64,000 nt of DNA from an uncultured Ignavibacteriales bacterium (GTDB lineage Bacteria; Bacteroidota; Ignavibacteria; Ignavibacteriales; Ignavibacteriaceae). A program made the position numbers and the translations under genes. The DNA lies in NCBI GenBank assembly GCA_963834015.1, contig CAWIAG010000004.1, positions 1,749,926 through 1,813,925 on the forward strand. The letters are read 5' to 3'. Within the stretch, counting starts at the first letter, position 1. Each line of letters opens with the position of its first letter. Shown here one piece after another: positions 15,603-57,404 of the stretch. Below the pieces are notes generated by a model, which was given only the letters and a program-made list of their open reading frames with translations, was not told the DNA's origin and did no database searches.

Positions 15603-15830
15603 CCTTATAGTCTTCAACCGTTTTAAGGGTTTACGGTACACTTATAAGAAGTAAGGCAAAACAAATTATTGAATATTTGTGAATGAATTTTAACACAAAT
15701 TCTAAAAGTAGAGCTACTAAAACCATGACTGAAGAGTCAAACATTTAAAGCGCCGGGCAGATTGTAGATAAATATGAAATTTAAAATGTTTTATTTGTTA
15801 TATTCAGGAAAATATTTCTTTTATTAAATA

Positions 15831-38976: not shown

Positions 38977-38995
38977 TTAAATTTTTTATTAAAGA

Positions 38996-41359
38996 TTAAT
39001 TCGTTTTAACCAATCCTTTTATCATATCAATTAATTCTTTTTTATAGAACGGTTTGGCTAGATAGCTTGTAAATCCCTGCTCCAGGAACATTCTTTTATG
39101 CTTCTCGGAAGCATAGCCGGTAATTGCGATTGAGGGAGTTTCCCGATAATTATCCAACTGCCTGATTTGTTTTAAGACTTCTATCCCGGACATGCCCTGG
39201 CCAAGGTTGATGTCTATAAGGAGCAGATCAAAGTTTGAATTTTTTGCACGATTAACCGCCTCTTCGCCGTTATTAACTGAAGATATCTCCCAGTATTTTT
39301 TTAAAAACATCTCTACTACCTCTACATTCAACAAGTTATCCTCAACAAGTAGTATTTTTAATTGTCTATTAAGGAGCGATTCCAGCGATGATAAATTGAT
39401 ACCCGTGCCAGTTACCGTAGTGGGCTTATTATTAAAAGGGATGTTACATTTATTAACAGGGATGAGTACTGAAAAATTCGATCCCTTGTGCCATTCACTT
39501 TCAACCAGGATTTTAATTCCCAATAATTGGGCCATCCTGTTGGCTAATGATAAGCCTAATCCCAATCCTTCAAATTCCCGGTGGAAGCCTTCGCTTACCT
39601 GCCTGAACTTCCGGAAGATAATCTCGTAATTTTCCTTTTTTATACCTATGCCCGTATCTTTCACATTAATTAATGTAAATTCATTTCCCTCATATCTAAT
39701 CTCATTATTTAATTCAACACGAACAATACCCGTTTTAGTATACTTAATTGCATTTTCAACCAGGTTGGAAATGATACCGTATAAAAGATATTCATCGCTT
39801 ATTATTTTAATCCCGTTTTGCGGGATGTCAAGTTCAAATTGCAGATTTTTTTCGGCTGCCCTCTGTTCATAAGATGATTTGAGAGTTGTGCAGAAAAAAT
39901 TCAAATCAATTTCTTTATAATTCGGTCTATAGTTTTTACTTTCAAGCTCCGTGGAGGCAAGTATTAAATTCAAAGTTTGCAAAAGGCGCTTCCCGGAGAG
40001 TGTAATTTTTTCAATTATTAAAGACAACTCAAGATTCTTTTCATTTTCCGATAGCAGTTGAGCAAAACCGAGAACTGCATTTAACGGTGTTCTTAGTTCG
40101 TGCGATATGTTGGCGATAAGCAGGGATTTTGTTTTATTCGCTTCTTCCGCCTCACCTTTAGATTCTATCAGTTCCGCCTCAATTTTTTTGCGGTTTGTTA
40201 TATCATCTTCCACAGAAAGGAAATGGGTAATTACACCTTCATCATTTCTAACCGGTGATACAGACACAGACACAGGGCAGTATTCTCCCGATTTCTTCTT
40301 GATCTCCAGTTCCCCTTTCCAGTTATTGCCTGCAAGGATAGTGTTACAAAGGTCTTTGTAAAGTTCTTCCGTTTGCCGGTCTGATTTAAATATCCGGGGA
40401 GACTGCCCTATCAATTCTTCTTTCTCAAAACCGGTCAACCCGGTCATTTGCTTGTTACTGTAAATGATCTGCCCGTTAATACCGGTTAAAAAAATACCCG
40501 ACGAAATTTGTTCAAGGGCAGTTGAAAGTAAACGGAGCTGTTCATTTGCGGATTTTGATTCGGAAATTTCATACTGGGTGTATTTTTCTTCCAATTCTTT
40601 TAACTTATTTTCTGCCGATTTTCTTAATTGAATTTCATCCTGTAAATTGTTGATCGTATGCTCGAAAAGAATATTTTTTTCCTTAACAAGCATACTGAGC
40701 TCATCGTTCACTCTTTCCATGTCATGTATTTTTTTCCTATGAAGAGAGACATTGCTGCATGTACCGTATAACCGGGTTATAAAGGGCATGTTTGACTCCC
40801 GCACCGGGAAAAACGAAAAATTATACCATGCAATATTTCTTGTGCCGTGCAGGAGCCTTATCTCCACAAATTTTCTTTCCCCGTTTATAGCCTCTGCCAG
40901 GGCCTCCTGAAAATAAGAATAATCGTCATAATGAAGAACGTTTCTGCTTAAATCAACATCCAGTAATGTTTCAAACGGGTACCCCATTTGATCTGAAAAA
41001 TTTTTATTTATCCATTCCAATTTCAAATTGTTTTTGCCGGAAACTATGATTGAAAAGATAAAATCGGTAAAAAGCCCTGTGATAAAATTTAAACGTTCCT
41101 GAACAGATGCATATTGTTCTATCCTGGTGTTTATTCCATTAATTTCATCTTTCAATTTTTTTATAATGGATTTTGCTTCAGTAATTTTTTCAGCTTGAGA
41201 ATTTATGATCAGTTCCTTTTCATTCTCTGAATTTTTGTTATTGCCTACTTCGGGATTTTTACCCGGGGCCAGGTTAATTCCGTTATTATTCACATTTTTT
41301 GAACTTTCATCTTTTGAACTCATATTCTCCCGCCTATTCTTTTGTAAATTTATTTTCAT
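38996..41359 (-). CDS. Cytoplasmic hybrid sensor histidine kinase / response regulator with PAS domains
   Basis: Low-complexity N-terminus, coiled coil, PAS-like segments, HisKA (NISHELRTPLNAV), HATPase_c (GTGIGI), and a C-terminal receiver (LKILLVEDN...DLLLIDINL). Confidence 0.85.
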   Translation of the reverse strand: MKINLQKNRRENMSSKDESSKNVNNNGINLAPGKNPEVGNNKNSENEKELIINSQAEKITEAKSIIKKLKDEINGINTRIEQYASVQERLNFITGLFTDFIFSIIVSGKNNLKLEWINKNFSDQMGYPFETLLDVDLSRNVLHYDDYSYFQEALAEAINGERKFVEIRLLHGTRNIAWYNFSFFPVRESNMPFITRLYGTCSNVSLHRKKIHDMERVNDELSMLVKEKNILFEHTINNLQDEIQLRKSAENKLKELEEKYTQYEISESKSANEQLRLLSTALEQISSGIFLTGINGQIIYSNKQMTGLTGFEKEELIGQSPRIFKSDRQTEELYKDLCNTILAGNNWKGELEIKKKSGEYCPVSVSVSPVRNDEGVITHFLSVEDDITNRKKIEAELIESKGEAEEANKTKSLLIANISHELRTPLNAVLGFAQLLSENEKNLELSLIIEKITLSGKRLLQTLNLILASTELESKNYRPNYKEIDLNFFCTTLKSSYEQRAAEKNLQFELDIPQNGIKIISDEYLLYGIISNLVENAIKYTKTGIVRVELNNEIRYEGNEFTLINVKDTGIGIKKENYEIIFRKFRQVSEGFHREFEGLGLGLSLANRMAQLLGIKILVESEWHKGSNFSVLIPVNKCNIPFNNKPTTVTGTGINLSSLESLLNRQLKILLVEDNLLNVEVVEMFLKKYWEISSVNNGEEAVNRAKNSNFDLLLIDINLGQGMSGIEVLKQIRQLDNYRETPSIAITGYASEKHKRMFLEQGFTSYLAKPFYKKELIDMIKGLVKTN

Positions 41360-41376
41360 TACTTCCTGTTACCGGA

Positions 41377-41410
41377 GGTATACCCCCGCCGCCGCCGGCG
41401 GGGGTATACC
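41377..41410. promoter_or_regulatory. Exceptionally GC-rich perfect hairpin GGTATACCCCCGCCG-ccgc-CGGCGGGGGTATACC in the 5' leader of the hybrid HK gene
   Basis: A 15-bp perfect stem read directly from the sequence, 18 bp upstream of the minus-strand start codon at 41359. Confidence 0.5.
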
Positions 41411-41578
41411 CTCTTTTGAATAATGCTGTTATGCAGAACTATTAACTTGCGGCCTTTTAATAAAAATTCATTTTTATTGAATTTTACCTGTTAAAAGTTC
41501 TGATTCAAAAATGGTAAATAGACTGAAGAGCGGGTATAACAGATTGTGTGATACTCTTGTAACAGAATTAAACGCGGC

Positions 41579-41597
41579 TGTCACAGATTATGTGACA
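41579..41597. promoter_or_regulatory. Palindromic operator-like site TGTCACA-GATTA-TGTGACA, with a half-site-like copy ACAGATTGTGTGA at 41539-41551
   Basis: Perfect 7-bp inverted arms about 220 bp upstream of the hybrid HK start, with a related direct copy 40 bp away. Confidence 0.35.
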
Positions 41598-41636
41598 AAG
41601 TTATAGGATTAGAGGGACGAAAGGGTTATAAAGAAA

Positions 41637-41678
41637 TCATTAACACCGCGATAAATTGCGGTGTTAATGATTAAGCAC
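41637..41678 (-). terminator. REP-like palindromic element acting as terminator of the PKD-protein operon: TCATTAACACCGCG-ataaatt-GCGGTGTTAATGA followed by TTTCTTT on the minus strand
   Basis: 14-bp stem. Near-identical to the element at 15563-15602, including the flank GTTAATGAT(T/G)AAGCAC. Confidence 0.55.
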
Positions 41679-41693
41679 AGGGGATAAGGGAAA

Positions 41694-44600
41694 TTATTCC
41701 CTGACTTTTACTGTTAAGTTAAATGATTTCTTAACCCTGCCGCAGACTGTACCGGTTTGGTCGTCAACAAGCAGTTCAACTTTATATATTCCTTCTTGTT
41801 TATATTTATGAAATACAATCGGCAAAGCAGATGATTCACCATCCCCAAATTTCCAGACTATCTTTAATAAATTCCCATCGGCATCGACCACGTTGGATGC
41901 ATCGAATTTAACTTCGTCATTTGCACTGTTTATATAAACAACAGAATCCTGCAATTCAGGAATCTGAGGCGGTTCAACTGCATAAACCAGTGTTGAATCA
42001 CTATAAAAAATATTATTCATTCCATCGCTCAAAACAAAATAGTAAATATATTTACCGCTTTTCTGAACAGAATGATTTAATATCCTGCTATCGGAGTTAA
42101 ATAAACCGTTTTTGCCGTTCCATTTAAATTTAAACTCGGCGTCTTTAAATTCCGTTCGAATTACCGGGTTTACGGTAAACATCTCCCCGGCACAAACATT
42201 GATAGATTTGGGAATAGAGCAATCCGGATAATTAATTACTTTCAGGTACTTTGTAGATTCACTAATGCTGTTTTGAGTATTTAATTTGTCTTTGACCACC
42301 AGCCTTATCTTATTTAAACCTGTGCGGCTGAAAATCGTTTTAAATTCAGCTTCATGTGAAACATCAACATCATTTACATACCATTCAAAATCAAGTTCAC
42401 CGCCGGAGTTGGAAGATTTGCTTCCATCCAGTTCAATCTGTTCATTTACAAATAAGTATTCAGGCAGTGAAAAATCAGCAACAGGCTCATCAAAAATATT
42501 TAAATAAATTGTATCCCTGTCGGTGTTATTCTCAACATTTGTATTATCGGTAACTGTTAAAATAACCCTGTACTTCCCTTTGAAAGAATAGGAATGCAAT
42601 ACGGAAATTCCTTTACCGGTAGAGCCGTCGCCGAAATCCCAAATATATTTGGATATACTACCGTCGGGGTCAAATGATTTTTTACCGTCAAATGAAACCG
42701 GTTGATAAACTGCAGCCGTTTGTACAGAACCTATTTTTGCAACCGGGGGAGCATTAACAGAAACCGGCTTTAAAAATAAAGCGGAACTGCATTCATTTTT
42801 AGAATCCGTTTGAATTCTAAGAGTTACGGTAAAATTGCCGGACTTTGAATAGGTGTGGTTTACAACTTTTCCTTTTGTGTAAGAACTATCACCAAAATCC
42901 CAGTTATAATCTGTAATGTTTCCCACACTAGTTGAACTGGAAGATGCATCAAATACCTGCAAAGAATTCTGAGGAATGGAATCGCATGAAGCAAACGAAG
43001 CATAAGGAGCGTCCACAACCGTAACGGTTATCTTATCTAAAGATGTATTATCGCAGCTTCCTTTTTCATTTCCCGTAATCGTGAGCGTAACTTTATATTT
43101 GCCCGTCTTATAGTATGTGTGAACAGGCCTTGCCCCGGCGCCGGTTTCGCCATCGCCGAAATCCCAATCATAGCTTGCAATGGTTCCTCCGGCAGCGGTG
43201 GATTTAGAACCGTCAAATTTAATTTGTGAATTGGCACAAATAATAGTATCGCTGCCCGCGTTTGCAATAGGCGCTTCGTTAACATTCAAAAGTTTTGTAG
43301 TAATAGCCGAACTGCAGGCTAAACCGGAATTATCGGTTACTGTTAAAATAACTTTATGCGCCCCGCCTTTTTTGAATACTTTAAATACACTGCTTCCTGA
43401 TAAATGGGAAGAATCATCAAACGACCATAAATAATCCAGTTGAGTATTGTCGAAAGACCTGGATTTTAAACCGTTCAATATTACTATATCGCCGGCACAA
43501 ACTGTAGTATCAGCTCCTGCATCAGCAACAGGAGGGCGGTGAATTTTTACTGTAATGTTTTTCTTTACGGAAGAATTAGACAAGTTAAGCCCGTCGTTTA
43601 CCGTTAATGTAACCGGAAAAACACCGTAGTCCTTAAAATTATGAGTAATAATTCCGCTTCCCAGAACTTCCTTTTGATCCGGGAAAGTCCAGGAGTAGCT
43701 CAACTGGTCGCCGTCCGGATCGTATGAACCCGAGGCATCAAAAGTAATTATTTTATTGCACGATTCAATATATTCCTGTGTCTTTATAACAGGCGGCGTG
43801 TTGATCTTTATGTATATTGTGTCCGGGACATTAGAATTGGCAACACCGGCATTGTCGGTAACAGTTAAAACTGCGCAGTACAAACCCGATTTATTGAATG
43901 ACCTTTCTACTACTTTTCCTGTTTTCATCAAGCCGTCGCTGAATACCCATGAATAGAATTTTATAGTACCATCGACATCGTATGATTTGGAGGCATCAAA
44001 CCTTAACTTTTGATTCGGGACGGCGATGGCAGTATATTCAATTTTAGGAACCGGCGGCGAGTTGACTATTACTTTTGCATAATCCACACTTGATAAAGGC
44101 TTAACAAAATCATCTGTAACTTCAAGCCCTACTGTATAAGTTCCGGGTTCTTTGAATGCATATTCAAACCGTCTGCCTTCCGAAATGAATTTATTATCTA
44201 CAAACCACCTGCTTTTGAGGGCTCTTCCATCGGGATCAACGGAGCGCGAGCTGCTGAAGCTAACCGTTTGTCCCGGGGCAACCACCTGGTCCGGGCCTAT
44301 ATCCGCAACCGGCCTTCTATCTATTATTACTTTTGAAGTATCAAAAGCAGAATTATTCTTTGCTTCGGTATTATCATATACCTGCAGTGTAACAGTGTAA
44401 GCACCGGCTGTTCTGTAAGTATGCGAAACTGTTTTCCCTTCATCAGTATAGCCGTCTCCAAAATCCCAGATATATCTTGTAATAGTGCCGTCTACATCGT
44501 AAGATTTTGAACCGTCAAAAACTGCATAACCGTTGTTCAGGTACTGATCATTTACAATTTTTGCAACAGGCTGCGCATTAACCGTGATTTCAACAGAGTC

Positions 44601-46472
44601 AATATTAGTATCGGTAACGGTTTCCGAATTATCCCTGACTTTTAATGAGACTATATATTTACCGTATTTAGGATAACTGTGGTAAACTTTTATGCCGCTG
44701 GCTATGGTTCCATCCCCAAAATTCCATTCGAAGTTATTAATTTTATAGCCCTCTGTTGTAGATTTTGAACCGTCAAACAATAGATTTTCATCAGTTGCCA
44801 CAACCCTGTTGGAACCAAGATTGGGAACAGGCTGGTTATGAATTACAACGTTTACGAATGCCGACGAAGTATTATTTGATGCATCGGTATTATCTTTAAC
44901 TGTTAATTTTACCTTGTAACTTCCGGTTTCAGAGAAGCTTTGTGTAACAATTTTTCCTTCTTTTTTACCGAGGGTTCCGAAATCCCAAATATACTGCACA
45001 ATATTTCCATCAGGGTCAAAGCTGGGCGAAGCATCAAAAGTTAACGGTTGACCAGGGGGAGCAGTAAGCCTTTCTTTTGTCTTTGCGACAGGCTGCATAT
45101 TAATGAATATTGAAATGCCGGTTGTATCAAGATTACAAACCTGTTTGGAAGTTTCTTCAACCGTTAGAACAACTGAATACCTGCCCGGATTTTTATAAGT
45201 ATGTAATACTTTAATTCCGCTGCCTGTCTCACCGTCTCCAAAAGACCAGGTATACTTTGTAAGATTGGGATTGTTTACAACTGATTTACTTCCGTCGAAT
45301 TGGACCTTCTCATTAAGCGCCCTGACCAAATCGGTGCCGGCATCAGCTTTTGGTTTAGGCAATATATTAACTTCGTAAGGTTCCAGTTTTGCGCGGGTGA
45401 TAGCATTTGACTGTTCTTCCACCAAAACTTCTTCGTTATATTTTCCCGGGCCGGGAAATTCCTGCCAACATATATCACCATTGCATTTTGCAGCCGGCCC
45501 GTCAGGCCAGTTAAAAATTAAACCATAATTTTCAGGTGAATTTGTGCCCGAAAAATCGAGTTCGGCGCTAAAGCAGCCGGTTTGTTTTATTTGCTTTACT
45601 ATGTTGGGTATAGTTGCCGGTACTTTATTATAGTAAGGCAGTTGAATGGGAAGTTTTTTCCCCTGCTTGTCTGTGAAATAAAAAGTTATATCATTTATAC
45701 TGTGCATTTCAGGGCCGAAATCGAGAGCACATAAATTACCCCTTTCATATTTACTCAAAGGAACTTTTATGCTTGACCAATTTTGGGGATCATTTTCAGT
45801 CAATGGAATTCCATCCCGGAGCAGAGTACTCAGGGCGATATTAGTGCCGTCAAAATCAAAGGTATGAATATTTATTTCGTCATCATTCTTGCCGGGCATG
45901 GTTATAAAAGAAACCTTCATTGGATTTTTCGCCAGTTGAATTGTCGGCTCATAAGAATAAAACTTTACATTATTTATTGTCCTGTTCTGGGATGGTTCGG
46001 AACTGATAAACAATTCAAATACGTTGCCGTCATGGCCTTCGATGCCCTGGGAAACCAGAGTATATACAGACCCGGAATCATTGGGGACACCTGCAAGCAA
46101 TGCCCAGCGTTCAAGATATTTTTTATCATTGCCTACTTCAATTTGTTTAATCAAACTGCTTTGTATTCTTGCCTTAAAATCACCGGGGCTTAACAAGCTG
46201 TCTTCCGGAATTTCACCTTTGTAAAGAGAGAACCGGAACTTAGAATCCCAATTTCCAATTCGTTCATCTAAAGAAGAGCCGCATGCAGCATCAAAAATCC
46301 TGACATAGGCCATACCTTTATAGCCGGCCGGCAGTTTAAAATGAATGGCCTGAATATAGTTGTCATCGCCTTCACCCGGGCTAGCCTGGGGGCCGAAATT
46401 TATAAATCTTAACCTTGTTTGAGCGTTTACAATAAGAGGCAGTAATAACAATAGTAAAAGTAATTTTTTCAT
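41694..46472 (-). CDS. Giant secreted multi-PKD-domain surface protein (1592 aa)
   Basis: Signal peptide MKKLLLLLLLLPLIVNAQ, an N-terminal ~350-aa unknown domain, then about 12 PKD repeats (recurrent W.FGDG...H.Y...G.Y.V.L.V.D). No T9SS CTD. Confidence 0.85.
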   Translation of the reverse strand: MKKLLLLLLLLPLIVNAQTRLRFINFGPQASPGEGDDNYIQAIHFKLPAGYKGMAYVRIFDAACGSSLDERIGNWDSKFRFSLYKGEIPEDSLLSPGDFKARIQSSLIKQIEVGNDKKYLERWALLAGVPNDSGSVYTLVSQGIEGHDGNVFELFISSEPSQNRTINNVKFYSYEPTIQLAKNPMKVSFITMPGKNDDEINIHTFDFDGTNIALSTLLRDGIPLTENDPQNWSSIKVPLSKYERGNLCALDFGPEMHSINDITFYFTDKQGKKLPIQLPYYNKVPATIPNIVKQIKQTGCFSAELDFSGTNSPENYGLIFNWPDGPAAKCNGDICWQEFPGPGKYNEEVLVEEQSNAITRAKLEPYEVNILPKPKADAGTDLVRALNEKVQFDGSKSVVNNPNLTKYTWSFGDGETGSGIKVLHTYKNPGRYSVVLTVEETSKQVCNLDTTGISIFINMQPVAKTKERLTAPPGQPLTFDASPSFDPDGNIVQYIWDFGTLGKKEGKIVTQSFSETGSYKVKLTVKDNTDASNNTSSAFVNVVIHNQPVPNLGSNRVVATDENLLFDGSKSTTEGYKINNFEWNFGDGTIASGIKVYHSYPKYGKYIVSLKVRDNSETVTDTNIDSVEITVNAQPVAKIVNDQYLNNGYAVFDGSKSYDVDGTITRYIWDFGDGYTDEGKTVSHTYRTAGAYTVTLQVYDNTEAKNNSAFDTSKVIIDRRPVADIGPDQVVAPGQTVSFSSSRSVDPDGRALKSRWFVDNKFISEGRRFEYAFKEPGTYTVGLEVTDDFVKPLSSVDYAKVIVNSPPVPKIEYTAIAVPNQKLRFDASKSYDVDGTIKFYSWVFSDGLMKTGKVVERSFNKSGLYCAVLTVTDNAGVANSNVPDTIYIKINTPPVIKTQEYIESCNKIITFDASGSYDPDGDQLSYSWTFPDQKEVLGSGIITHNFKDYGVFPVTLTVNDGLNLSNSSVKKNITVKIHRPPVADAGADTTVCAGDIVILNGLKSRSFDNTQLDYLWSFDDSSHLSGSSVFKVFKKGGAHKVILTVTDNSGLACSSAITTKLLNVNEAPIANAGSDTIICANSQIKFDGSKSTAAGGTIASYDWDFGDGETGAGARPVHTYYKTGKYKVTLTITGNEKGSCDNTSLDKITVTVVDAPYASFASCDSIPQNSLQVFDASSSSTSVGNITDYNWDFGDSSYTKGKVVNHTYSKSGNFTVTLRIQTDSKNECSSALFLKPVSVNAPPVAKIGSVQTAAVYQPVSFDGKKSFDPDGSISKYIWDFGDGSTGKGISVLHSYSFKGKYRVILTVTDNTNVENNTDRDTIYLNIFDEPVADFSLPEYLFVNEQIELDGSKSSNSGGELDFEWYVNDVDVSHEAEFKTIFSRTGLNKIRLVVKDKLNTQNSISESTKYLKVINYPDCSIPKSINVCAGEMFTVNPVIRTEFKDAEFKFKWNGKNGLFNSDSRILNHSVQKSGKYIYYFVLSDGMNNIFYSDSTLVYAVEPPQIPELQDSVVYINSANDEVKFDASNVVDADGNLLKIVWKFGDGESSALPIVFHKYKQEGIYKVELLVDDQTGTVCGRVKKSFNLTVKVRE

Positions 46473-46482
46473 CTTTGTGTCC

Positions 46483-48801
46483 CTAATTTTTATTTAGCAA
46501 CAAGTAAGTTTTTTTGTTATTTAATTTATCTTCAAGTGTAACCGATTTAATCCGGGGCTTAATGTTATCTGCGCACATAAATGTCAGCTCATAAAGCCCG
46601 GCAGCGGAATTATAAGGCAGAATTTCGGTAAGCCTACTGCCATTTAAACTTAGTTCAACTTCAGCCGATTTACTTAGGCCTGTTTCATCATCAGCCTTAA
46701 CGCTAATTTGATAAAGATTATCGCCTATAATTTTTATATCCGATGATATTAACTTAGGAGGCTGGTCATCGCAAATGATTTTCTTTTCCAATGATTTAAT
46801 ATTTCCGTCTTTATTAACCGCCTCAATTGTAAAGGTGTTGTTAAAGCCGGTTAAATCCTGGGGGGAGTTGAATTCATTTTTTTCATTTAACGGAATTTTA
46901 ACTCCATTAATAAATAATTCTTCAGCACCTAAAACTTTGCCGCTAATGTTTATCTTTTTGTGATTAACAAAAGAAGGTACCGAAGGGTCAAGGATAATTT
47001 CAATGTTTTCGCTTTTCTTCAATACATTAAATGTTGAACTTTTTTCGAACCCGGCGGGTGTGATAACATTAATTAAAAATATTTCACCCAAATTATAAAA
47101 TGGAATTGAAAAATCACATTTGCCCAGAGAATCCGAGTAAGCAGTATATAACGATTGAGAATTTAATGATTCAACCCGAACGCGGGACAGGGGCCGTGTT
47201 GATAAATTAAGATTTAAAATATTTTTGGATGTATAATATGTTGAACTGCGGGTCAAGTCGCCGAAAACCGAATCCGATATTTTAATTTCGGGATCGGACT
47301 CAACAATAACTTTTCTATATATAGTGGTTGCATTACCGATTGGATTTTTTGACTCAATTTCAATTGTATTTTTACCTTCATTTAAAACTAAATCATATTC
47401 AAAACTGCCGTCAGTGCCTGTTACAACTTTATTATGGTTGACTAAAACCTTGCACCCGGAATTGGTTTTGCCTGTTATCTTCAGGCCTGTACTCCGCGAA
47501 ATAAAATTATCTGCGGGAAAATAAATATTTAAAAACGGTTTTGCCGTATCATGTAATATTATAACCGACCTGATCTCCGAAAATGGCCCGGGCAAACCCA
47601 GGCTGTCCACCGAACAAACATGCCAGTAATAAACGCCGGGCTTCAGCCCTGAAATTTCCAGCGAGCTGCCGGTATTTTTGTTGTATGATTTATCCACTAT
47701 TTTAAATGTTCCCGTGGTTGAAATTTCCATCGAATAATCAGGTACACCCGGGGCATTCTGCCAGTTAAATTTTACATTATTCCCTGTAACAGAAGAAAAA
47801 TCTTCCGGGTAGATTAATTCCGGCGGGGGGATTAATTTCCTTGGCTTTGACGGGTAACCGCCGTTAGGAATAACAGAACCCTGGTTTTTCTTTACGATAA
47901 CCGACGAATCCTTTACGCCGAGTGTAATTTCGCCGTTGTAATTTGCCAGCTTTGCATTTGCATTATTTTTTTCGATCCAAAAATATTTAGAGTTGATTTT
48001 TGTCCTTACGCCGGGAATATCAAGGTCGAATTTTTTCTTAGGGCTGTTCAAAAGCATTGCATAAGCATTACCTTTTTCAAGTTTAATTTTTGTATCGGTA
48101 TTATTCCCTATAACATCAACGCGGGATATTTGTATCTCTGCCTCCGAATTTTCATAAAGCTTGATCTGGCTTAGGTCATTAAAAGTAATATTAGCTAATG
48201 ATAAAGATAAAGTTCTTGCCCAGTCATTCTCTTTCAGGTTGTCGTATAGTTGGGCATTCTCCCAGTTTAAAACCGAAGGGAACATTTTTTGGACCGTGCC
48301 TTTTTTATACGAAATTACGGCATCCAAAGTTTTTTCTCTTATTTCCATTGTCTGGTTGTATGCTTTTTTTGCAAGTTTCACGGCTTCTATCAGATAATCA
48401 TGGGATGCATCAAAATCCAGGGAATTTTTAGCTTTTAATGCGTCATAATAATTACCTGATGATTTTTCCAAAAGATCGGGAGAGAGAATTTTAGCGCCTG
48501 CTTTAACTGCATCCTGTATGCTCCTGGAAGCATCATCAAACAATTCCAATAAATCTTTTACTTTCTTTTGTGGAATTGTTACCTCAACAGGTGATTGAAC
48601 GCTGCTTAGATCTTTGATGTTATTATATTTCAGTATATAAGTCCAAAGATCAGGATCGCTGAAATAATCCCGGGCTAACTTTCGCACGTCGGTCTGGTTG
48701 GTAATTGTAACCCGGATATTATCTTTTGTCTGAGCATTCAGGCTGAAGTATTGAAGCAGCATAAATGACAAAGCGGCGAATAAAATAATTTTACGAAACA
48801 T
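46483..48801 (-). CDS. Secreted multidomain protein: LysM-like N-terminus, FecR-like segment, FN3 and Ig-like domains
   Basis: Signal peptide. IRVTITNQTDVRKLARDYFSDPDLWTYILKYNNIKDLSSVQSPVEVTIP is LysM-like. KYFWIEKNNANAKLANYNGEITLGV is FecR-like. The FN3 motif YYWHVCSVDSLGLPGPFS is shared with the T9SS proteases. 10-bp spacing to the PKD gene. Confidence 0.65.
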   Translation of the reverse strand: MFRKIILFAALSFMLLQYFSLNAQTKDNIRVTITNQTDVRKLARDYFSDPDLWTYILKYNNIKDLSSVQSPVEVTIPQKKVKDLLELFDDASRSIQDAVKAGAKILSPDLLEKSSGNYYDALKAKNSLDFDASHDYLIEAVKLAKKAYNQTMEIREKTLDAVISYKKGTVQKMFPSVLNWENAQLYDNLKENDWARTLSLSLANITFNDLSQIKLYENSEAEIQISRVDVIGNNTDTKIKLEKGNAYAMLLNSPKKKFDLDIPGVRTKINSKYFWIEKNNANAKLANYNGEITLGVKDSSVIVKKNQGSVIPNGGYPSKPRKLIPPPELIYPEDFSSVTGNNVKFNWQNAPGVPDYSMEISTTGTFKIVDKSYNKNTGSSLEISGLKPGVYYWHVCSVDSLGLPGPFSEIRSVIILHDTAKPFLNIYFPADNFISRSTGLKITGKTNSGCKVLVNHNKVVTGTDGSFEYDLVLNEGKNTIEIESKNPIGNATTIYRKVIVESDPEIKISDSVFGDLTRSSTYYTSKNILNLNLSTRPLSRVRVESLNSQSLYTAYSDSLGKCDFSIPFYNLGEIFLINVITPAGFEKSSTFNVLKKSENIEIILDPSVPSFVNHKKINISGKVLGAEELFINGVKIPLNEKNEFNSPQDLTGFNNTFTIEAVNKDGNIKSLEKKIICDDQPPKLISSDIKIIGDNLYQISVKADDETGLSKSAEVELSLNGSRLTEILPYNSAAGLYELTFMCADNIKPRIKSVTLEDKLNNKKTYLLLNKN

Positions 48802-48803
48802 TT

Positions 48804-50741
48804 TTAAACCTCATTGAATACCGGTAGTGAAATAATAAATTCCGCACCATTACCTTTTTCACTCTTAAGCATTATCTCTCCATGCATTAACTCAACAAGT
48901 TTTTTTACAATTGATAATCCCAACCCTGTTGAAAAATCCCCGCCTACAGGCTGTGCTGAGAGCCGGGCAAACTTTTGGAATACTTTTGTTTTATCTTCTT
49001 CTGTAAAGCCGGGCCCCTCGTCTTTTATTCGTGTTTCAACCATCCTGCAATCTTCTGATAAGCCGATAGATATAAAAATATTTTTATTAACCGACGAAAA
49101 TTTTATTGCATTGGATAAAACGTTTTGAATTACCTGAAAAGTTAAATTGTTATCAGCAAAAACATCTTTCACATCATTATTATAGTTATCAATTATTGCC
49201 AGATTTTTTTGTGAAATATTTTCCAGGTTTTGTTTTTTAAGTTCCGTAATAAGAGGGATTAAAGAAACTTTTTCCGGTTTAATATTTATTTTACCCTGTT
49301 CAATCGTGTTAATATCCAGCAAATCTTTAATAATCAAAGACATCCGGTTCGAGGTTTTAATTATAGCGCTTAAAAATTCATTCTGCTGTTCCCCTGAAAT
49401 ATCTTCATCATGTTTTAACGTATCGGCAAAGGAACTTATGGCAAACAAAGGATTTTTTAAATCATGTGCGGCGATAGCTAAGAATTCATCCTTTTCTTCG
49501 TTTAACTCCAAAACCCTTTTATATGCTTTTTTTAATTCTAAATTTGATTCTTTCAACTCATTCGTCCTGTCTTCAACTTTTTTCTCTAAGTTTTTATTAT
49601 ACTCTTCCAATTGTTCTTTTTGATCTGCAATCTCCGCGAAATTCCTTTTCAACTGTTTACTCATCTTTGAAAGCGATTCATTTAATAATCCTATTGAATC
49701 CTTAGCTTTATAATCCACGCTTACATCAAAATTTCCGCTGCTAATGAGTGTGGACGCTTTCGCCATATTTATAATAGGGCGGCTGAGATGCTTTGAGAAA
49801 AGTATGGCAACAATAACAGACAGTATTACACTGATCCCTGCAAAAAATAAGAAAAAGAGAAGAGCCTGGTTAACAACCGCATAGGCAGAACTTTTGCTGA
49901 TAATTGAAACAACAACCCAGTTAACAGCTTCCGCCGGTGAGAAAGAGGAAACAAAATTACCAAGCTGCGGATCCGAATAATTATTTACCAAAGCAACTTT
50001 GTTTTTATTATTTACTAATGATTGTGCATCTGCTATTATTTGATCAGGCAGTTGCAATAAAAAATTATTAGTTAAAAATTTCTTGCCTGTAGCATCAGTT
50101 ACAAACAAGGTTCCGATCCTGTTTAATAAATGGTTTTCAAGATCGGAAACTATATCACGGAGGTCTAGCTGGCAGACCAAATATGACGATGAGGATTTAT
50201 TCAATTTAACGCCGGTAACTTCCCAGCAAATCCATGTTTCCAGAGCTTTATTATATACGGGAGTTGAGATAAAAGGAAGCTTGCGGTTTTTAATATCAAA
50301 AATACCGGGGTCAATTTTTTCCTGTGAACTGTCTACGGGAATAATTTCCCTGCCGCCTTTTTTAAGAAAATCCTTTCCTGTAAAAAATGCCTGGTTATAA
50401 CTACCGTTGTTATCCATAAAAAGCGAAATTGAAATAATATTATCTATTTTTCTTATATTTGAGATCATAAATTCTATTTTTTCGTTGGCAGAGATATCAG
50501 GATTCTCAATGGTACTTTTAATTAAGTCCTGAATTTCAAGAGATTTATTTATTTTAGAATTTATGCTTGAAGAAATTGCGTTGGATGAGAAAATTAATTT
50601 TTCATTTATATTACCTCTCAATTCATTTAAAATGAGGGAAGTAATACTGTAACTAATTAATAAGCCCGGCAGTATAGCCATCAATAGCATTAATATTCCC
50701 AGCTTTATCTGCCAGGGTATCCCATTTAATCGAATTGTCAC
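48804..50741 (-). CDS. Membrane sensor histidine kinase (extracytoplasmic sensing domain, HAMP/coiled coil, HisKA, HATPase_c)
   Basis: Two TM segments flank a ~270-aa periplasmic domain. IAAHDLKNPLFAI is the H-box. C-terminal G-boxes GLGLSIVK. 2-bp gap to the downstream gene. Confidence 0.85.
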   Translation of the reverse strand: MTIRLNGIPWQIKLGILMLLMAILPGLLISYSITSLILNELRGNINEKLIFSSNAISSSINSKINKSLEIQDLIKSTIENPDISANEKIEFMISNIRKIDNIISISLFMDNNGSYNQAFFTGKDFLKKGGREIIPVDSSQEKIDPGIFDIKNRKLPFISTPVYNKALETWICWEVTGVKLNKSSSSYLVCQLDLRDIVSDLENHLLNRIGTLFVTDATGKKFLTNNFLLQLPDQIIADAQSLVNNKNKVALVNNYSDPQLGNFVSSFSPAEAVNWVVVSIISKSSAYAVVNQALLFFLFFAGISVILSVIVAILFSKHLSRPIINMAKASTLISSGNFDVSVDYKAKDSIGLLNESLSKMSKQLKRNFAEIADQKEQLEEYNKNLEKKVEDRTNELKESNLELKKAYKRVLELNEEKDEFLAIAAHDLKNPLFAISSFADTLKHDEDISGEQQNEFLSAIIKTSNRMSLIIKDLLDINTIEQGKINIKPEKVSLIPLITELKKQNLENISQKNLAIIDNYNNDVKDVFADNNLTFQVIQNVLSNAIKFSSVNKNIFISIGLSEDCRMVETRIKDEGPGFTEEDKTKVFQKFARLSAQPVGGDFSTGLGLSIVKKLVELMHGEIMLKSEKGNGAEFIISLPVFNEV

Positions 50742-50790
50742 TTTAAGTTTCTATAAAGTTGTAGATTCGATTTAAATATAACTTTTTTTT

Positions 50791-51438
50791 ATGATAAAAA
50801 TAATTGTTGTAGACGACCATCCGATGCTTCGCGCCGGGCTGGTTCAAACTATCAGCCGGGAGCCCGATCTTAAGGTCCTTGATGAATGCGGTAACGGGGA
50901 GGAACTGATCTCAAAAATAACCGGAAACGAGTATGACGTTGTAGTGCTGGACATTGACTTACCAGGGCGAAACGGGATTGAAATATTAAAAGAAGTAAAA
51001 AAGATAAATCCAAAGCTTTCCGTCCTAATTTTGAGCTCATTTCCTGAAGAAAGATATGGTGTGCGCGCCATCAAGGCAGGTGCAAATGCTTATCTTACAA
51101 AGGGGGACGATACAAAAATAATAGTTGAAACAATAAGAGGAATTAAAGGCAATAAAAGAAAAATATCACCTAAACTGGCTGAAATTCTTGCAAATGAATT
51201 AAATGACATATCGGATAAACTACCTCACGAACGATTATCGGACAGGGAACTTGAAGTGATGAGGCATATTGCGCTGGGGAAGTCTACAAGTGAAATCGCC
51301 GTTTTGCTCTCACTCAGTGTGAATACGGTAAACACATACCGTGCAAGGATATTAGAAAAGATGTGCTTTAGTTCAAATACGCAGATAGCTATTTATGCTT
51401 TGGAGAATGGGCTTCTTGACAAAGCTTCACGAAGCTGA
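50791..51438 (+). CDS. NarL/FixJ-family response regulator (REC + LuxR-type HTH)
   Basis: IIVVDDHPMLRAGL...VVVLDIDLPGRNG receiver, then RELEVMRHIALGKSTSEIAVLLSLSVNTVNTYRARILEKM LuxR HTH. Divergent from the HK operon. Confidence 0.85.
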   Translation: MIKIIVVDDHPMLRAGLVQTISREPDLKVLDECGNGEELISKITGNEYDVVVLDIDLPGRNGIEILKEVKKINPKLSVLILSSFPEERYGVRAIKAGANAYLTKGDDTKIIVETIRGIKGNKRKISPKLAEILANELNDISDKLPHERLSDRELEVMRHIALGKSTSEIAVLLSLSVNTVNTYRARILEKMCFSSNTQIAIYALENGLLDKASRS

Positions 51439-51487
51439 GATTATAAATAAAACATTAGTTAAGCTACCTCTAAACAATAGAATATAT

Positions 51488-52769: not shown

Positions 52770-55700
52770 ATGATTCGATCTATAGTACTGAGTTTTTTGT
52801 TTTGCAGTTTACTTCTTGCTTCATCCGGGGTTAAAGAGAGGCGTTATGCACCCGGCGAAATTATTATTAAATATGAAAAGGTAGGGCAAAGAGCAAGGGG
52901 GTCAGAGATAATAACCCAGCATAAAAGCTTTGTTGATAATTTAGAACTAAACATGAAGGGTTTAAAAATAAAAAGTTACTCTCCTGTTTTCAAAAGTTTA
53001 ATTAGGGAAATGACTGACAAAAATCTTACCGAGCAGGAGGTAGTTGAGAATAAAGCTGTTACCAAAAAAAATAAAACATCATCATCTTTTATTAAAAAAA
53101 TAACTTTCTCAAATATCCTTTTACTCAAAATTGATTCAGTAGCAGATATCTTAGAGTTAGCTTCAACTCTAAATAATAACCGAGATTTATTGGCCTCAGA
53201 GGGAATGAGAATTGTTTACGCCGAACCGAATTATTTAAAAAAGACAAGTGTAAACCCGAATGATCCTTTGTATCCTCTGCAATGGTCCTATCGAATAACT
53301 GATGTAGCTAATGCCTGGGATACTACGGAGGGAAGTCCTAATATTAAGATTGCAATTGTTGATACAGGAGTTGATCCAACACATCCGGATTTAATTGCAA
53401 ATCTTATTCAGGGCTATAATTTTGTTAATATCGATACAGACTACTACAAACAAGATTCTAATATAACCTTACTTCCGGGAGAAATTTATACGCAACCCGG
53501 ACCTAATTGTACCGACTATAATGGTCATGGGACTCACTGTGCAGGTATTGCTGCGGCAGCCGGAAATAATGGAATCGGAATTATCGGTGTAGCTCCAAAT
53601 TGTAAGATTATGCCTGTTAGAGCTGGTTTTAGTCTTATGGTTGATGGACAGGAGGAAGGTGTTCTTGAAACTACTTCTATCGTGGAAGGAATTAATTATG
53701 CAGTGGATAATGGTGCAAATGTAATTAGTATGAGTTTTGGTGGCGATAGTTCGAACCTTGAAGAAGAAGCTATTCAGAATGCTTATTACAACAATGTAGT
53801 CTTAGTTGCTGCTGCAGGGAACAACAGTTCATCTGAAAAGTTTTATCCGGCTGGATACAGTGAAGTATTAGCAATAACATCAGTAGATTCAACCAGGTCC
53901 GCTTCTTCATTTACTGAATATGGATATTGGACGTCTGTTGCAGCACCTGGAGAAAATATAATTTCAACTGTACCGTTAACTGGAGGTATCCTTACCGATC
54001 CATCCGGTTATAAGGTATTATCCGGAACTTCAATGGCGTCTCCTTTCGTTGCCGGTGAAGTTGCATTAATTTTATCGCACAATCCTTCTTTATCCAATAA
54101 TCTAATATATCAAATAGTCAGAACTGCAGTTAGTTCGTACTATGCGAGTAATAATTATATAGGTACCGGAATCGTTGATGTAGATAAAGCTTTTATAGGA
54201 ACCGGAGCTTGTATAGCAAAAATTACTGTTCCGTATAATATAAACAATCTGTATATATCCAAGGGAAATATAAGTATTTCCGGAAGAGCATCAGGGTTAT
54301 TATTCCGTAATTATTATTTGCAATACTCAGATTATCAAAATTCAACTGCGATCTGGCAGTCCGCAGGACAAATTTATACTACTCAGGTTGATAGCGGTTA
54401 CCTTGGAACTGTTAGTATAGCACAACCGGGGGTTTATTATATAAGGCTGGTAGTTACAAGCACTAACAATATACAGTATACAGATATAATCGGACCTGTT
54501 ACAGTTGATAACAGATTGAAATCCAATTGGCCGGTTTCAACAGGATCTCCCATCGGTTCTACGCCGGTACTTTCGGATATCTATGGGGACGGGAATGTTG
54601 AGGTAATATTTACAAGTTCAAACGGTGAAATCTATGTTGTAGATCAGAATGGCAATAATAAACCTGGCTGGCCTGTAACATTACCTAATTCCAGTTCTAA
54701 ATCCCAAGTTGGTTATACAAGCCCGGCAGTTGGGGATCTGGACAATGACGGTAAAAAAGAAATAGCAGTGAGAGACGGTCAGTTTATTTATGTATATAAA
54801 AATGATGGTACCATGAGGAATGGATGGCCGGTATCTTTAGGTACAAATATATTTTCGGGAAATGCAATAGTAGGCTCACCCACTATTGCTGATATTAATA
54901 ATGATGGTTATAAAGAAATACTTGTAACATCTCTTAATGGTAAAATATTTGCATTCGATCGTAATGGTTACATTATTTCCGGCTGGCCGGTATCAGTACC
55001 GATTAATTCTGTATGGGCTACTTTGTATTCAACTCCAGTAGTATCAGATATAAAAGGTGATGGTAACGTTGAAATAATAATCCAATGCATTGATGAGTCT
55101 TCCGCTAATTCTATTGGCTACCTATATGTATTTGATAATTTTGGAAATGTTCTTCCCGGCTGGCCGCAAACAATAGGAGGGGGATCATGGACTTCCCCTA
55201 TAACTGCAGATATAAACAATGATGGGCAAAATGAAATAATTGCATCTTCATTTTTGCCGTCCGGTTCTTCATCAGGTTCAATAGGTCTTTACGTTTTTAA
55301 TCCGGCCGGCAGCTTACTAAAAGGATTCCCTGTGCAGTTGAATGATGTGTCCTTTGGATATTATAATATTAAAGCAGGGCTGTCAGCCGGAGATATAAAT
55401 AATGACGGTTATAAAGAAATTATCGTTGCAAGCAGCCAATTGAATTCACTATGGGCGGTTGACAGAAATGGTAAAGTACTCTGGAATTCACAACCAAGCG
55501 AGCCATGGGAGTATAATTTTGCGTCGGTTCCAATTATTGCGGATATCAATAATGACGGCAAACCTGAAATATTAGTTTCTAAATACAATAATACAAATCA
55601 AACCGGCAAAATTATTGTTGTTAATAACACCGGGCAAATAATGGAAAGTCTTTCTTGTGTTCTTCCGGAACAGATATGGGCTACTCCTTCTATTGGTGAT

Positions 55701-57404
55701 ATTGAAGGGAATGGCAATCTCGAATTAATTTGCGGGTCTATTCAGGGCAACGTTTTTTGTTGGGACCTGGGTGTACCATTTGATACTACCTTGATGATCT
55801 GGCCTACATATCAGCAAAACTATCAGAGAACCGGGAGTATTGATCTGCTCAAAACCATACCTGCAGTTACTCATTTAACAGAGCCGCCAAATAATGCAGT
55901 TATTCAACCCGGGGAAATTACTTTTTCCTGGAATCCTGTCCCGGGAGCTCTTAAATATAATTTCGAACTATCTGATTCAATTTCTTTTAATGATATTATT
56001 TTTCAGGATACCTCAATGTCAGCAGTATCCCTTATAGTTGATTCAGTCCAGAGCAGCAGTAAGGGATTAAAGGCAGGTCTGAAAAACACCAGGACTGTAA
56101 GTGCAATTAAAAAGTTAATCACGAATGATAAAAAAATTATAGATCCCAAAAAACATCTAACAGGATTGAATGATGGTGTAAGGTATTATTGGAGAGTAGC
56201 TTCATTAGATTTGATAGGATCAAGTCCTTTTTCGGCAATAAATTCATTTTCTACAATTTTAAATGCACCCGGAACACTTTATGCCCTGGCGCTTCCTTCA
56301 GAAAGAGTAGTATTAAACTGGTCCGGTACATCAAACAATAACACGGGATTTATAATACAAAGGAAACTTTCTACAGATACTATCTACACTGTAATTGATA
56401 CTGTTAAAACAGATACAATCAGTTTTACAGATACAACATTGACATCAATAAATACGTATAATTACAGAATAGAGGCATATAATCAAATAGAAACTTCTGC
56501 ATTCAGCAATGTAGTAACAATAGCAACCCTTCCGCCTTACCCAGCCGCACCTACATTAATAGCTCCAATAAACAATGCATCTATCCTTACAGGTAGTTTA
56601 TATTTAAGCTGGATTAGTTCTGCGAATGCAAGCAGCTACCGGTTACAGGTCTCAACAGATTCGACATTTAAAACATTCTTTTTAAATGATTCGGTTCTTA
56701 CTACCACAACATTTCAGGTAACTAATCTGAGTGACGGCTTAAGATATTACTGGAGAGTAAATTCAAAAAATGTTACCGGAATAAGCATATATTCCGGGGT
56801 GAATTCATTTTCAACAATTTTAAATGCACCTCAAAATTTAAGTGCAATTGCAATGTGGGGTTACAAAGTATCACTTACCTGGATAGGCAAAAGCAATGAT
56901 GAATCTGGTTATATAATTGAACGCAAGCTTAGCAAGGATACTTCGTACACAATTATAGACTCATTAAAACTAAAGGTTACAAGTTTTACTGATTCATCGT
57001 TAACAGCAGTAAACACATATAATTATAGGATAACTGCATATAATGCTTTGGGTACTTCAGGATTCAGTAATGTTATAACTGTAAATACAATAACCTCGGT
57101 AGAAAATAAATCCCGTCAGATACCTGTGAACTATGAATTATCCCAAAACTTCCCCAACCCGTTTAATCCAATAACAGTAATAGAATATGGACTACCGGTA
57201 CAAAGCCGGGTAAAGATTGTAGTCTATAATATATTGGGAGAAGTTGTAAAAGAACTTGTAAATTCTGTTCAGAGTGCGGGATACCATTATATGGACTTTG
57301 GAGGGAACATGAGTTCAGGCGTATACTTCTATAAGATAGATGCAAAAGCCGTTAACAACTCAAGGCAGTTCATGCAAATTAAGAAAATGATGCTTTTAAA
57401 ATAA
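52770..57404 (+). CDS. T9SS-secreted S8 subtilisin-family peptidase with FG-GAP/VCBS-like beta-propeller repeats, FN3 repeats and a type-A Por C-terminal sorting domain
   Basis: Asp/His/Ser triad blocks IAIVDTGVD, HGTHCAGI and GTSMASP. About 10 repeats of the D(I/L)(N/D)(N/G)DG(Y/K)KEI type. FN3 modules with YYWRV. The C-terminus NFPNPFNPITVIEYGLP...YFYKIDAKA...KKMMLLK is a canonical T9SS CTD. Good RBS AAAGGAGAG. Confidence 0.9.
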   Translation: MIRSIVLSFLFCSLLLASSGVKERRYAPGEIIIKYEKVGQRARGSEIITQHKSFVDNLELNMKGLKIKSYSPVFKSLIREMTDKNLTEQEVVENKAVTKKNKTSSSFIKKITFSNILLLKIDSVADILELASTLNNNRDLLASEGMRIVYAEPNYLKKTSVNPNDPLYPLQWSYRITDVANAWDTTEGSPNIKIAIVDTGVDPTHPDLIANLIQGYNFVNIDTDYYKQDSNITLLPGEIYTQPGPNCTDYNGHGTHCAGIAAAAGNNGIGIIGVAPNCKIMPVRAGFSLMVDGQEEGVLETTSIVEGINYAVDNGANVISMSFGGDSSNLEEEAIQNAYYNNVVLVAAAGNNSSSEKFYPAGYSEVLAITSVDSTRSASSFTEYGYWTSVAAPGENIISTVPLTGGILTDPSGYKVLSGTSMASPFVAGEVALILSHNPSLSNNLIYQIVRTAVSSYYASNNYIGTGIVDVDKAFIGTGACIAKITVPYNINNLYISKGNISISGRASGLLFRNYYLQYSDYQNSTAIWQSAGQIYTTQVDSGYLGTVSIAQPGVYYIRLVVTSTNNIQYTDIIGPVTVDNRLKSNWPVSTGSPIGSTPVLSDIYGDGNVEVIFTSSNGEIYVVDQNGNNKPGWPVTLPNSSSKSQVGYTSPAVGDLDNDGKKEIAVRDGQFIYVYKNDGTMRNGWPVSLGTNIFSGNAIVGSPTIADINNDGYKEILVTSLNGKIFAFDRNGYIISGWPVSVPINSVWATLYSTPVVSDIKGDGNVEIIIQCIDESSANSIGYLYVFDNFGNVLPGWPQTIGGGSWTSPITADINNDGQNEIIASSFLPSGSSSGSIGLYVFNPAGSLLKGFPVQLNDVSFGYYNIKAGLSAGDINNDGYKEIIVASSQLNSLWAVDRNGKVLWNSQPSEPWEYNFASVPIIADINNDGKPEILVSKYNNTNQTGKIIVVNNTGQIMESLSCVLPEQIWATPSIGDIEGNGNLELICGSIQGNVFCWDLGVPFDTTLMIWPTYQQNYQRTGSIDLLKTIPAVTHLTEPPNNAVIQPGEITFSWNPVPGALKYNFELSDSISFNDIIFQDTSMSAVSLIVDSVQSSSKGLKAGLKNTRTVSAIKKLITNDKKIIDPKKHLTGLNDGVRYYWRVASLDLIGSSPFSAINSFSTILNAPGTLYALALPSERVVLNWSGTSNNNTGFIIQRKLSTDTIYTVIDTVKTDTISFTDTTLTSINTYNYRIEAYNQIETSAFSNVVTIATLPPYPAAPTLIAPINNASILTGSLYLSWISSANASSYRLQVSTDSTFKTFFLNDSVLTTTTFQVTNLSDGLRYYWRVNSKNVTGISIYSGVNSFSTILNAPQNLSAIAMWGYKVSLTWIGKSNDESGYIIERKLSKDTSYTIIDSLKLKVTSFTDSSLTAVNTYNYRITAYNALGTSGFSNVITVNTITSVENKSRQIPVNYELSQNFPNPFNPITVIEYGLPVQSRVKIVVYNILGEVVKELVNSVQSAGYHYMDFGGNMSSGVYFYKIDAKAVNNSRQFMQIKKMMLLK

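Follow-up and report, generated by a model that had tools for sequence, protein, structure and literature searches.

The 64,000-nucleotide stretch of contig CAWIAG010000004.1 analyzed here (henceforth the window), from an uncultured Ignavibacteriales bacterium, contains a locus in which three closely packed minus-strand genes, coding respectively for a membrane-spanning sensor histidine kinase, a secreted protein with a FecR-type domain (the FecR-like protein), and a giant secreted protein built mainly of PKD domains, are transcribed divergently from a gene for a LuxR-type response regulator. The gene coordinates and strands, the intergenic gaps (2 bp between the kinase and FecR-like genes and 10 bp between the FecR-like and PKD genes), and the divergent regulator gene had all been described in an original prediction made from the nucleotide sequence alone; the open reading frame (ORF) list matches them exactly, and Pfam confirms its sensor kinase, FecR-like, and multi-PKD domain calls. 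The region is AT-rich (regional GC ~0.34-0.42), and all four proteins have their nearest relatives in metagenome-assembled genomes of the Ignavibacteriaceae and Melioribacteraceae. The synteny across genomes described below establishes that the four genes form one conserved signalling module with the LuxR-type regulator included, as the original prediction had it. The module appears to be a sensing device of the envelope, composed of three proteins, that has not been described before.

Domain architecture of the encoded proteins

The kinase combines HAMP (residues 315-365), HisKA (417-483; 56.7 bits), and HATPase_c (531-641) domains, carries an H-box-like motif (AAHDLKNPL), and is read from a GTG start codon that is consistent with the L001 orthologue (related loci are designated by L numbers). 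The regulator comprises a Response_reg (4-115) and a GerE domain (148-203), the arrangement of a NarL/LuxR-type regulator, with the UvrY/SirA/GacA family as its best NCBIfam match, under the cutoff of that model. Pfam thus identifies the domains of a classical two-component system, namely a HisKA + HATPase_c kinase and a regulator with REC and DNA-binding domains, which we pair on the basis of gene position, the two genes being divergently arranged in all 12 Ignavibacteria loci and in L019. Hydrophobic segments at residues 10-39 and 285-324 of the kinase flank a loop of ~245 residues, a topology that suits a dCache_1 domain, although Pfam returns no match for the loop in the window protein itself. 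The Pfam dCache_1 model is nevertheless matched by 8 of 10 members of the sensor family (best E 1.1e-10), and Pfam detects no CHASE2 domain in the window kinase or in any of these 10 members. The sensor region, homologous by sequence comparison to that of these relatives, is probably a divergent dCache_1-type domain.

In the FecR-like protein, Pfam recovers a FecR domain (196-292; 28.9 bits against a cutoff of 24; E 1.6e-6) and an Ig-like Glucodextran_B domain (422-500), along with weak matches to Big_6, Cadherin-like, and fn3. Its AlphaFold model has a mean predicted local distance difference test score (pLDDT) of 86 and a low predicted template-modelling score (pTM), because the protein is a chain of beads. 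From the N-terminus, these are a signal-peptide helix, a LysM-type unit at 29-76 (strand 29-33, helices 39-47 and 50-59, strand 72-76), three long helices (78-155), the FecR β domain (161-312), an FN3-like domain (329-416), and four Ig-like domains (424-767). Two further domain calls of the original prediction survive in part. Its LysM is supported by the modelled unit and by LysM Pfam matches or names among relatives, with no Pfam match in the window protein; its FN3 corresponds to the modelled β-sandwich at 329-416, with a weak match by sequence (fn3 E 0.03). For the FN3/Ig-like part, Foldseek retrieves only tandem-Ig proteins, and a PDB sequence search with the FecR-like protein returned nothing significant. 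The FecR domain, all-β in the model, is the best-conserved stretch in the alignment of the family, whose 69 full-length relatives are of near-uniform length (~730-830 aa) and reach the Desulfobacterota at ~28% identity.

Taken alone, the Pfam FecR match would fit Fec-type cell-surface signalling, with the FecR-like protein as an anti-sigma regulator below a TonB-dependent transducer. We consider this highly improbable, as neither the neighbours in the window nor the conserved portion of related loci include a gene for an extracytoplasmic function (ECF) sigma factor or a TonB-dependent receptor. The sole hydrophobic segment of the protein is N-terminal (residues 5-23, ending in NAQ) and resembles a cleavable signal peptide, with neither a cytoplasmic anti-sigma domain nor an internal transmembrane segment. 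Indeed, a Fec-type system is excluded by anatomy: LysM-like and helical regions precede the FecR domain, and there is no transmembrane anti-sigma FecR.

The PKD protein displays 13 PKD_4 stretches (Pfam, E 5e-248) and, as its only hydrophobic segment, an N-terminal one that resembles a Sec-type signal peptide and again ends in NAQ. Neither a C-terminal domain of the type IX secretion system (Por_Secre_tail or type B) nor an anchor was detected with Pfam and NCBIfam. Structure prediction of the N-terminal region, which the original prediction had put forward as a check, yields a head of three β-sandwiches (pLDDT 87.5, pTM 0.83). We take the third (~294-370) to be PKD-like, because the tail of a profile of the head also matches PKD repeats, while the first two (~20-290), which we term pkdN, have no Pfam family and no close solved fold. 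The family alignment shows near-invariant or invariant acidic-motif positions (D36, D61, D69, N150, and D206) in DxDxGG- and GNDGN-like motifs, whose likeness to known calcium loops suggests that the pkdN head binds Ca2+. An exhaustive HMMER search with the head against 1.84 billion representatives recovered 281 clusters at E<=1e-3, 172 of them at E<=1e-10, nearly always at the N-terminus of proteins of ~1600 aa. pkdN constitutes a previously unannotated domain family. A kinship with MtxA, raised by a weak match to Pfam MtxA_N in Desulfobacterota relatives, was dropped as peripheral, since the window protein lacks the match. MtxA, a 313-aa protein from magnetotactic bacteria with no assigned role, is also encoded with signalling genes (PMC4439547).

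Table 1. Features of the locus, with positions in the window
Feature	Position	Strand	Size and remarks	Basis
Response regulator gene	50791..51438	+	215 aa	ORF list; Pfam Response_reg + GerE
Spacer between divergent regulator and kinase genes, presumed promoters both ways	50742..50790	.	49 bp, AT-rich	Sequence
Sensor histidine kinase gene	48804..50741	-	645 aa, GTG start	ORF list; Pfam; hydrophobic segments
Predicted extracytoplasmic sensor domain of kinase, aa ~40-285	49887..50624	-		Kinase-N-terminus profile; dCache_1 in relatives
Gene for secreted LysM-like/helical/FecR/FN3-like/4x Ig-like protein	46483..48801	-	772 aa, ATG start	Pfam + AlphaFold model
LysM-like β-α-α-β unit, aa 29-76	48574..48717	-		Model; LysM in relatives
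FecR-type β domain, aa 161-312	47866..48321	-		Pfam + model
FN3-like + four Ig-like domains, aa 329-767	46501..47817	-		Model; Pfam; Foldseek
Giant PKD protein gene	41694..46472	-	1592 aa, ATG start; head + ~14 PKD-type domains	Pfam
pkdN head, aa ~20-290	45603..46415	-	Two β-sandwich domains; acidic motifs EGDDN, FDxxCG..D, G[HND]DGN	
PKD-repeat stalk, aa 294-1592	41697..45593	-		Pfam
Terminator-like hairpin 3' of PKD gene	41635..41672	-	Within palindromic element 41635-41678	

Conservation of the module and exchange of its output

The original prediction had named a failure of the triad to co-occur in related genomes as one result that would refute it; the outcome was the reverse. In a set of one genome per species, 12 loci with a relative of the FecR-like protein were found, all in Ignavibacteria, and tblastn recovers in all 12 the divergent regulator, the kinase, the FecR-like protein, and the PKD protein (by the homology of its first 375 aa), with order and orientation unchanged, the one exception being a locus whose contig ends inside the FecR-like gene. 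Identities range over 60-82% for the regulator, 46-82% for the kinase, 38-68% for the FecR-like protein, and 33-76% for the PKD head. The intervals remain tiny, from about -38 to +32 nt between the kinase and FecR-like genes and from 5 to 35 nt between the FecR-like and PKD genes, and the genes flanking the module differ from locus to locus. Because gene order is kept while the flanking genes vary and the gaps stay tiny, the triad and the regulator behave as a conserved unit.

Since orthologous loci keep gaps of only -38 to +35 nt, the trio is likely to be co-transcribed. The short gaps in the window, a single closing hairpin, and the small gaps in orthologues further fit translational coupling and a matched dosage of the kinase and its partners. 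The hairpin has a 15-bp stem, an 8-nt loop, and a TCTTTAT tail, and lies 21 nt past the stop codon of the PKD gene. Its support lies in stem length and position, because the terminator scan overall yields 10 sites against 9.1 expected in shuffles, i.e., no excess. The REP (repetitive extragenic palindromic)-like terminator of the original prediction has modest support, in that the hairpin is contained in one copy of a ~44-nt palindromic element, ATCATTAACA[A/C]CGCGAT[T/A]AAT[C/T]G[T/C]GG[A/T]GTTAATGAT[G/T]AAGCAC; only two copies are present in the 64 kb, at 15560-15603 and at 41635-41678. Each is intergenic, and their orientation on the plus strand is the same. The element may belong to a small family of repeated extragenic palindromes of this genome. 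The spacer between the regulator and kinase genes measures 48-111 bp in orthologous loci, and no regulator-binding motif shared among the spacers of 14 loci is evident by eye. A sigma-70 promoter scan, at 35 sites against 33 expected, carries no information, and its consensus may differ from that of Ignavibacteria promoters; Rfam gave no matches in positions 38000-53000 of the window.

Beyond Ignavibacteria, the pair of the FecR-like protein and the pkdN-PKD giant occurs in Desulfobacterota, in a Bauldia species (Alphaproteobacteria), and on many metagenome contigs. The gene next to these distant FecR-like members codes for a PKD giant of ~1350-1970 aa with homology to the window protein over the first ~375 aa. 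Wherever the contig covers the context, the FecR-like gene adjoins the PKD gene, with the exception of L103, and this adjacency is kept across varied gene orders, viz., kinase-FecR-PKD, FecR-PKD-sensor, FecR-sensor-PKD, and PKD-sensor-FecR. A third gene, usually adjacent in the distant loci, codes for a membrane protein that combines a HAMP domain with one of two outputs, HisKA/HATPase or a class III nucleotide cyclase (Guanylate_cyc). A profile derived from the N-terminal 330 residues of kinases only (those of the window, L001-L012, L018, and L019) matches the N-termini of the cyclases encoded beside FecR-like/PKD pairs (E 4e-51 for L020 from Bauldia, 1e-43 for L021, 4.5e-41 for L104, and 3e-24 for L017); therefore, one extracytoplasmic domain is joined to different outputs, and in every case it accompanies the FecR-like/PKD pair. 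Among 29 informative, non-duplicate contexts, a sensor adjoins the pair in 26, of which 17 have a histidine kinase, eight a class III cyclase (loci with cyclase output include L020, L021, L025, L032, L034, and L104), and one is cut off by the end of the contig. These comparisons show that the sensor/FecR-like/PKD trio was inherited together across phyla as its cytoplasmic output was swapped. We found no description of the triad in the literature searched. The combination, which the original prediction had called unusual, is rare and in those papers undescribed, but it is a widespread conserved module rather than a one-off.

Several of these loci show additional elaborations. In L034 (9881-19110) and L104 (5026-14360) the PKD giant is tandemly duplicated (~960-990 + ~2120-2155 aa), with a pkdN head on both copies, which are placed between the FecR-like and sensor-cyclase genes. 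In one lineage (L017, 18611-21544, and L101, 16385-19363), a triad of FecR-like, sensor-cyclase, and PKD giant genes is followed by an extra gene, overlapping the PKD stop codon, for a 977-992-aa kinase with an N-terminal region of ~700 aa that shows sub-threshold Reg_prop-like similarity; this kinase aligns end to end with group-B Reg_prop kinases (20% identity, E 1e-31), chiefly over the kinase core. The Desulfobacterota locus L013 (5601-8015, minus strand) has no membrane sensor; divergently upstream of its pair lie genes for a soluble-looking nucleotide cyclase and a cyclic-nucleotide (cNMP)-binding/PatA_N protein. In L102 (13136-17137, plus strand) three consecutive Tad (PF13400) genes directly follow the triad. 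The cyclase and cNMP-binding genes of the former and the Tad genes of the latter could point to partners or to effectors acting downstream.

The pkdN domain also occurs in a stand-alone form, as a secreted protein of ~325 aa in ~60 metagenome loci (L035-L100; e.g., L082:2536-8668 and L086:9842-14476), where it is usually preceded by a PD40 β-propeller + PKD protein of 480-650 aa. Some of these loci encode, 4-315 nt downstream, a hybrid histidine kinase of the Reg_prop/Y_Y_Y type (~1070-1290 aa), and a kinase lies <=7 kb away in 15 of the 36 loci with sufficient flank. This constitutes a second, separate link of the domain to periplasm-sensing kinases.

Candidate modes of sensing

We propose that the module encodes a sensor of the envelope in three parts, with both secreted proteins as the input apparatus, or co-sensors, of the dCache kinase. 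This is our best-supported interpretation, although we would accept and doubt it in equal measure. Under this proposal, both exported proteins would remain in the cell envelope, with the FecR-like protein tethered to peptidoglycan via its LysM-like unit. The head of the giant PKD protein, probably binding Ca2+, would capture or report an envelope or polymer cue, and the FecR domain would transmit the state of that protein to the dCache domain. The kinase would then be switched through HAMP, leading to phosphorylation of the divergent NarL/LuxR regulator, which would control transcription, possibly including that of its own operon. In other lineages, the same input apparatus would feed into cAMP or cGMP.

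The co-sensor interpretation is favoured on several grounds. The kinase is the first cistron of a tightly packed operon, which implies a matched dosage that is unexpected for a kinase and mere structural cargo. It is favoured also because the cyclase versions have a diffusible output, mostly without a locus-specific regulator, and because the FecR domain is a signal-relay module in the founding system, where it contacts its signalling partner in the periplasm (PMC5498481). There is, moreover, precedent in the LysM-FecR proteins that are encoded with CHASE2 kinases (PMC5192318). Further support comes from the synteny in Ignavibacteria, the recurrence of the pair in other phyla, the presence of one input domain on different outputs, and the stand-alone pkdN proteins encoded beside Reg_prop/Y_Y_Y hybrid kinases. 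The predicted topology is consistent with such an arrangement, the loop of the kinase lying between two transmembrane segments and both partners bearing only an N-terminal signal-like segment.

The main alternative, possible but doubtful, is that the dCache kinase responds unaided to a small diffusible ligand, and that the regulator (or cAMP/cGMP) switches on the two adjacent genes as cargo, for a structural, matrix, or adhesive apparatus. Two-component systems are often encoded beside an operon under their control, tandem PKD/Ig architectures are typical of structural or adhesive proteins, and dCache_1 domains, matched by most of the sensor family, are typically small-ligand receptors. This alternative must accommodate the kinase as the first gene of the same tight operon, implying a dosage similar to that of a supposedly abundant structural protein, and a FecR domain that is a signalling rather than a structural module. 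Moreover, a purely cis-regulatory link is harder to explain for the cyclase loci, which yield a diffusible messenger, mostly with no locus-specific regulator nearby. The co-sensor and cargo models are not mutually exclusive, because autoregulated co-sensors are common.

A number of points weigh against the co-sensor interpretation, several of which speak at the same time for regulated cargo. Adjacency and a conserved input domain would be equally expected if the sensor merely regulated both genes via a small dCache ligand. The support comes entirely from comparative genomics and monomer models, and the window proteins fall below every Pfam Cache and LysM threshold. A stalk of ~14 PKD domains, if extended, would be far longer than the width of the periplasm, and NarL-family regulators are not the usual partners of HisKA-type kinases. 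Three contexts (L013, L015, and L103) hold the pair with no adjoining sensor within 8-10 kb. Finally, the FecR-domain protein encoded beside the cyclase in the CHASE2-cyclase/Clr system of S. meliloti belongs to the Clr/cAMP targets, and the signal is perceived without it (PMC5498481).

The architecture of the PKD protein, a head on a long stalk, together with the established link to signalling, also invites the contact-sensing reading that the original prediction had raised, with an adhesin displayed on the cell surface whose binding to a surface or another cell would be relayed inward to the kinase. We regard this as improbable. Only a Sec signal peptide is apparent; Pfam and NCBIfam found no C-terminal domain of the type IX secretion system, type I secretion/RTX motif, autotransporter barrel, or sortase motif. 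Across the 29 contexts, no outer-membrane component is conserved in the module, and the phyla that possess it differ in their secretion systems, which speaks against an export route particular to one lineage. From these sequence features, a periplasmic location of the PKD protein appears at least as likely as one on the surface.

More broadly, and only tentatively, we suggest that the module might represent a previously unrecognized class of three-protein extracytoplasmic receptors. The PKD giant, a very long Ig-repeat protein whose head would depend on Ca2+, would explore the envelope or some external polymer like an antenna or mechanical probe, a FecR protein tethered to peptidoglycan would act as the relay, and the outputs, phosphorelay or cyclic nucleotide, would be interchangeable. 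Such a class would occur widely, in Ignavibacteriota, Desulfobacterota, and Alphaproteobacteria as well as in uncultured lineages, with pkdN as a new family of signalling-associated domains whose stand-alone form would be used by Reg_prop/Y_Y_Y hybrid kinases. How membrane sensors come by their signals is obscure for most bacterial kinases and cyclases, and the module offers a concrete and phylogenetically broad case. The hypothesis of an accessory-protein-dependent sensor is directly testable here, because one sensor domain always goes with the same two large secreted proteins while the output swaps. If the PKD giant is indeed an input device, it would represent a new bacterial way to sense the envelope or the surroundings; if it is only cargo, the locus would be an ordinary, locally regulated envelope-protein operon.

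Genomic surroundings and relationship to known systems

Directly downstream of the operon lies a gene (38996..41359, minus strand) for a PAS-HisKA-HATPase-REC hybrid histidine kinase, which we place outside the conserved module because, among the related loci, only the closest, L001, has it at this position (63% identity). A perfect GC-rich palindrome of 34 nt (GGTATACCCCCGCCGCCGCCGGCGGGGGTATACC; 41377-41410), with a 15-bp stem including 11 GC pairs, sits in the AT-rich spacer ~18 nt upstream of the start codon of this gene. On the other side, an ORF for an α/β-hydrolase (BD-FAE/Abhydrolase_3; 51395-52420, plus strand), as listed, shares 44 nt with the 3' end of the regulator gene; its translation suggests that the true start is a downstream methionine before a signal-peptide-like segment (MNNKKITFALVLALLFAG...). 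The hydrolase gene is not kept beside the module in other loci. Further along, a gene on the plus strand (52770..57404) codes for a 1544-aa subtilase (Peptidase_S8) with FG-GAP repeats and two FN3 domains, whose C-terminal residues 1461-1530 match Por_Secre_tail below threshold (25.6 bits against a cutoff of 27), which is weak evidence for a type IX secretion system in the organism.

The closest described system is the BiofilmReg operon, in which a COG4254 LysM-FecR protein is encoded with a CHASE2 sensor kinase and with a regulator of biofilm formation in Burkholderia; the operon of that name is from Burkholderia contaminans, and P. aeruginosa has a counterpart in PA4035/PA4036 (PMC5192318). 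The present module is a variant of this theme of a LysM-FecR accessory coupled to a membrane sensor, and extends this poorly understood theme beyond CHASE2 sensors. Both combine a secreted LysM + FecR protein with an adjoining membrane sensor kinase, whose extracytoplasmic domain is large, and with a response regulator alongside, and the BiofilmReg accessory protein is predicted to be periplasmic (PMC5192318), as we propose for the FecR-like protein. The differences are equally clear: the present sensor domain is predicted to be a divergent dCache_1 rather than a CHASE2 domain; the 772-aa FecR-like protein adds a three-helix segment, an FN3-like domain, and four Ig-like domains; and a giant pkdN-PKD protein is present as an obligate third partner. 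Moreover, the regulator is of the NarL/LuxR type and divergently encoded, whereas that of BiofilmReg is of the OmpR/CreB type and leads the operon.

The versions of the module with cyclase output are reminiscent of the CyaD1/CyaD2/CyaK-Clr-SMc02177/SMc02178 cluster of S. meliloti, which likewise places a membrane cyclase near a periplasmic FecR-domain protein (PMC5498481). Unlike the present module, that cluster has a CHASE2 sensor and no PKD giant, and its FecR-domain protein is a downstream target (PMC5498481). With the FecA-FecR-FecI system, the module shares a periplasmic FecR-type β domain as a module for relaying a signal between envelope proteins; in contrast to that system, it lacks an ECF sigma factor, a TonB-dependent transducer, and a transmembrane anti-sigma segment, and its output is a two-component system or a cyclase.

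LuxP-LuxQ, TorT-TorS, and ChvE-VirA are established pairs in which a sensor kinase relies on an accessory protein in the periplasm. The logic proposed here would be analogous, in that a secreted partner encoded beside the kinase would bind the cue and modulate its extracytoplasmic domain. The partners differ: in those systems they are small solute-binding proteins, whereas here they are two large multidomain β-sandwich proteins with no solute-binding fold. In the LapD-LapG-LapA system, an inner-membrane protein, a periplasmic intermediary, and the N-terminus of a giant repeat adhesin form one chain. The present module similarly brings together an inner-membrane protein with a periplasmic domain, a putative periplasmic intermediary, and the N-terminus of a giant repeat protein. 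Unlike in Lap, no GGDEF/EAL receptor, LapG-type protease, or RTX/type I-secreted adhesin is detected by Pfam and NCBIfam in the four proteins. The direction of signalling would also be reversed: the Lap signal travels inside-out, whereas the kinase and cyclase outputs of the present module imply an outside-in flow.

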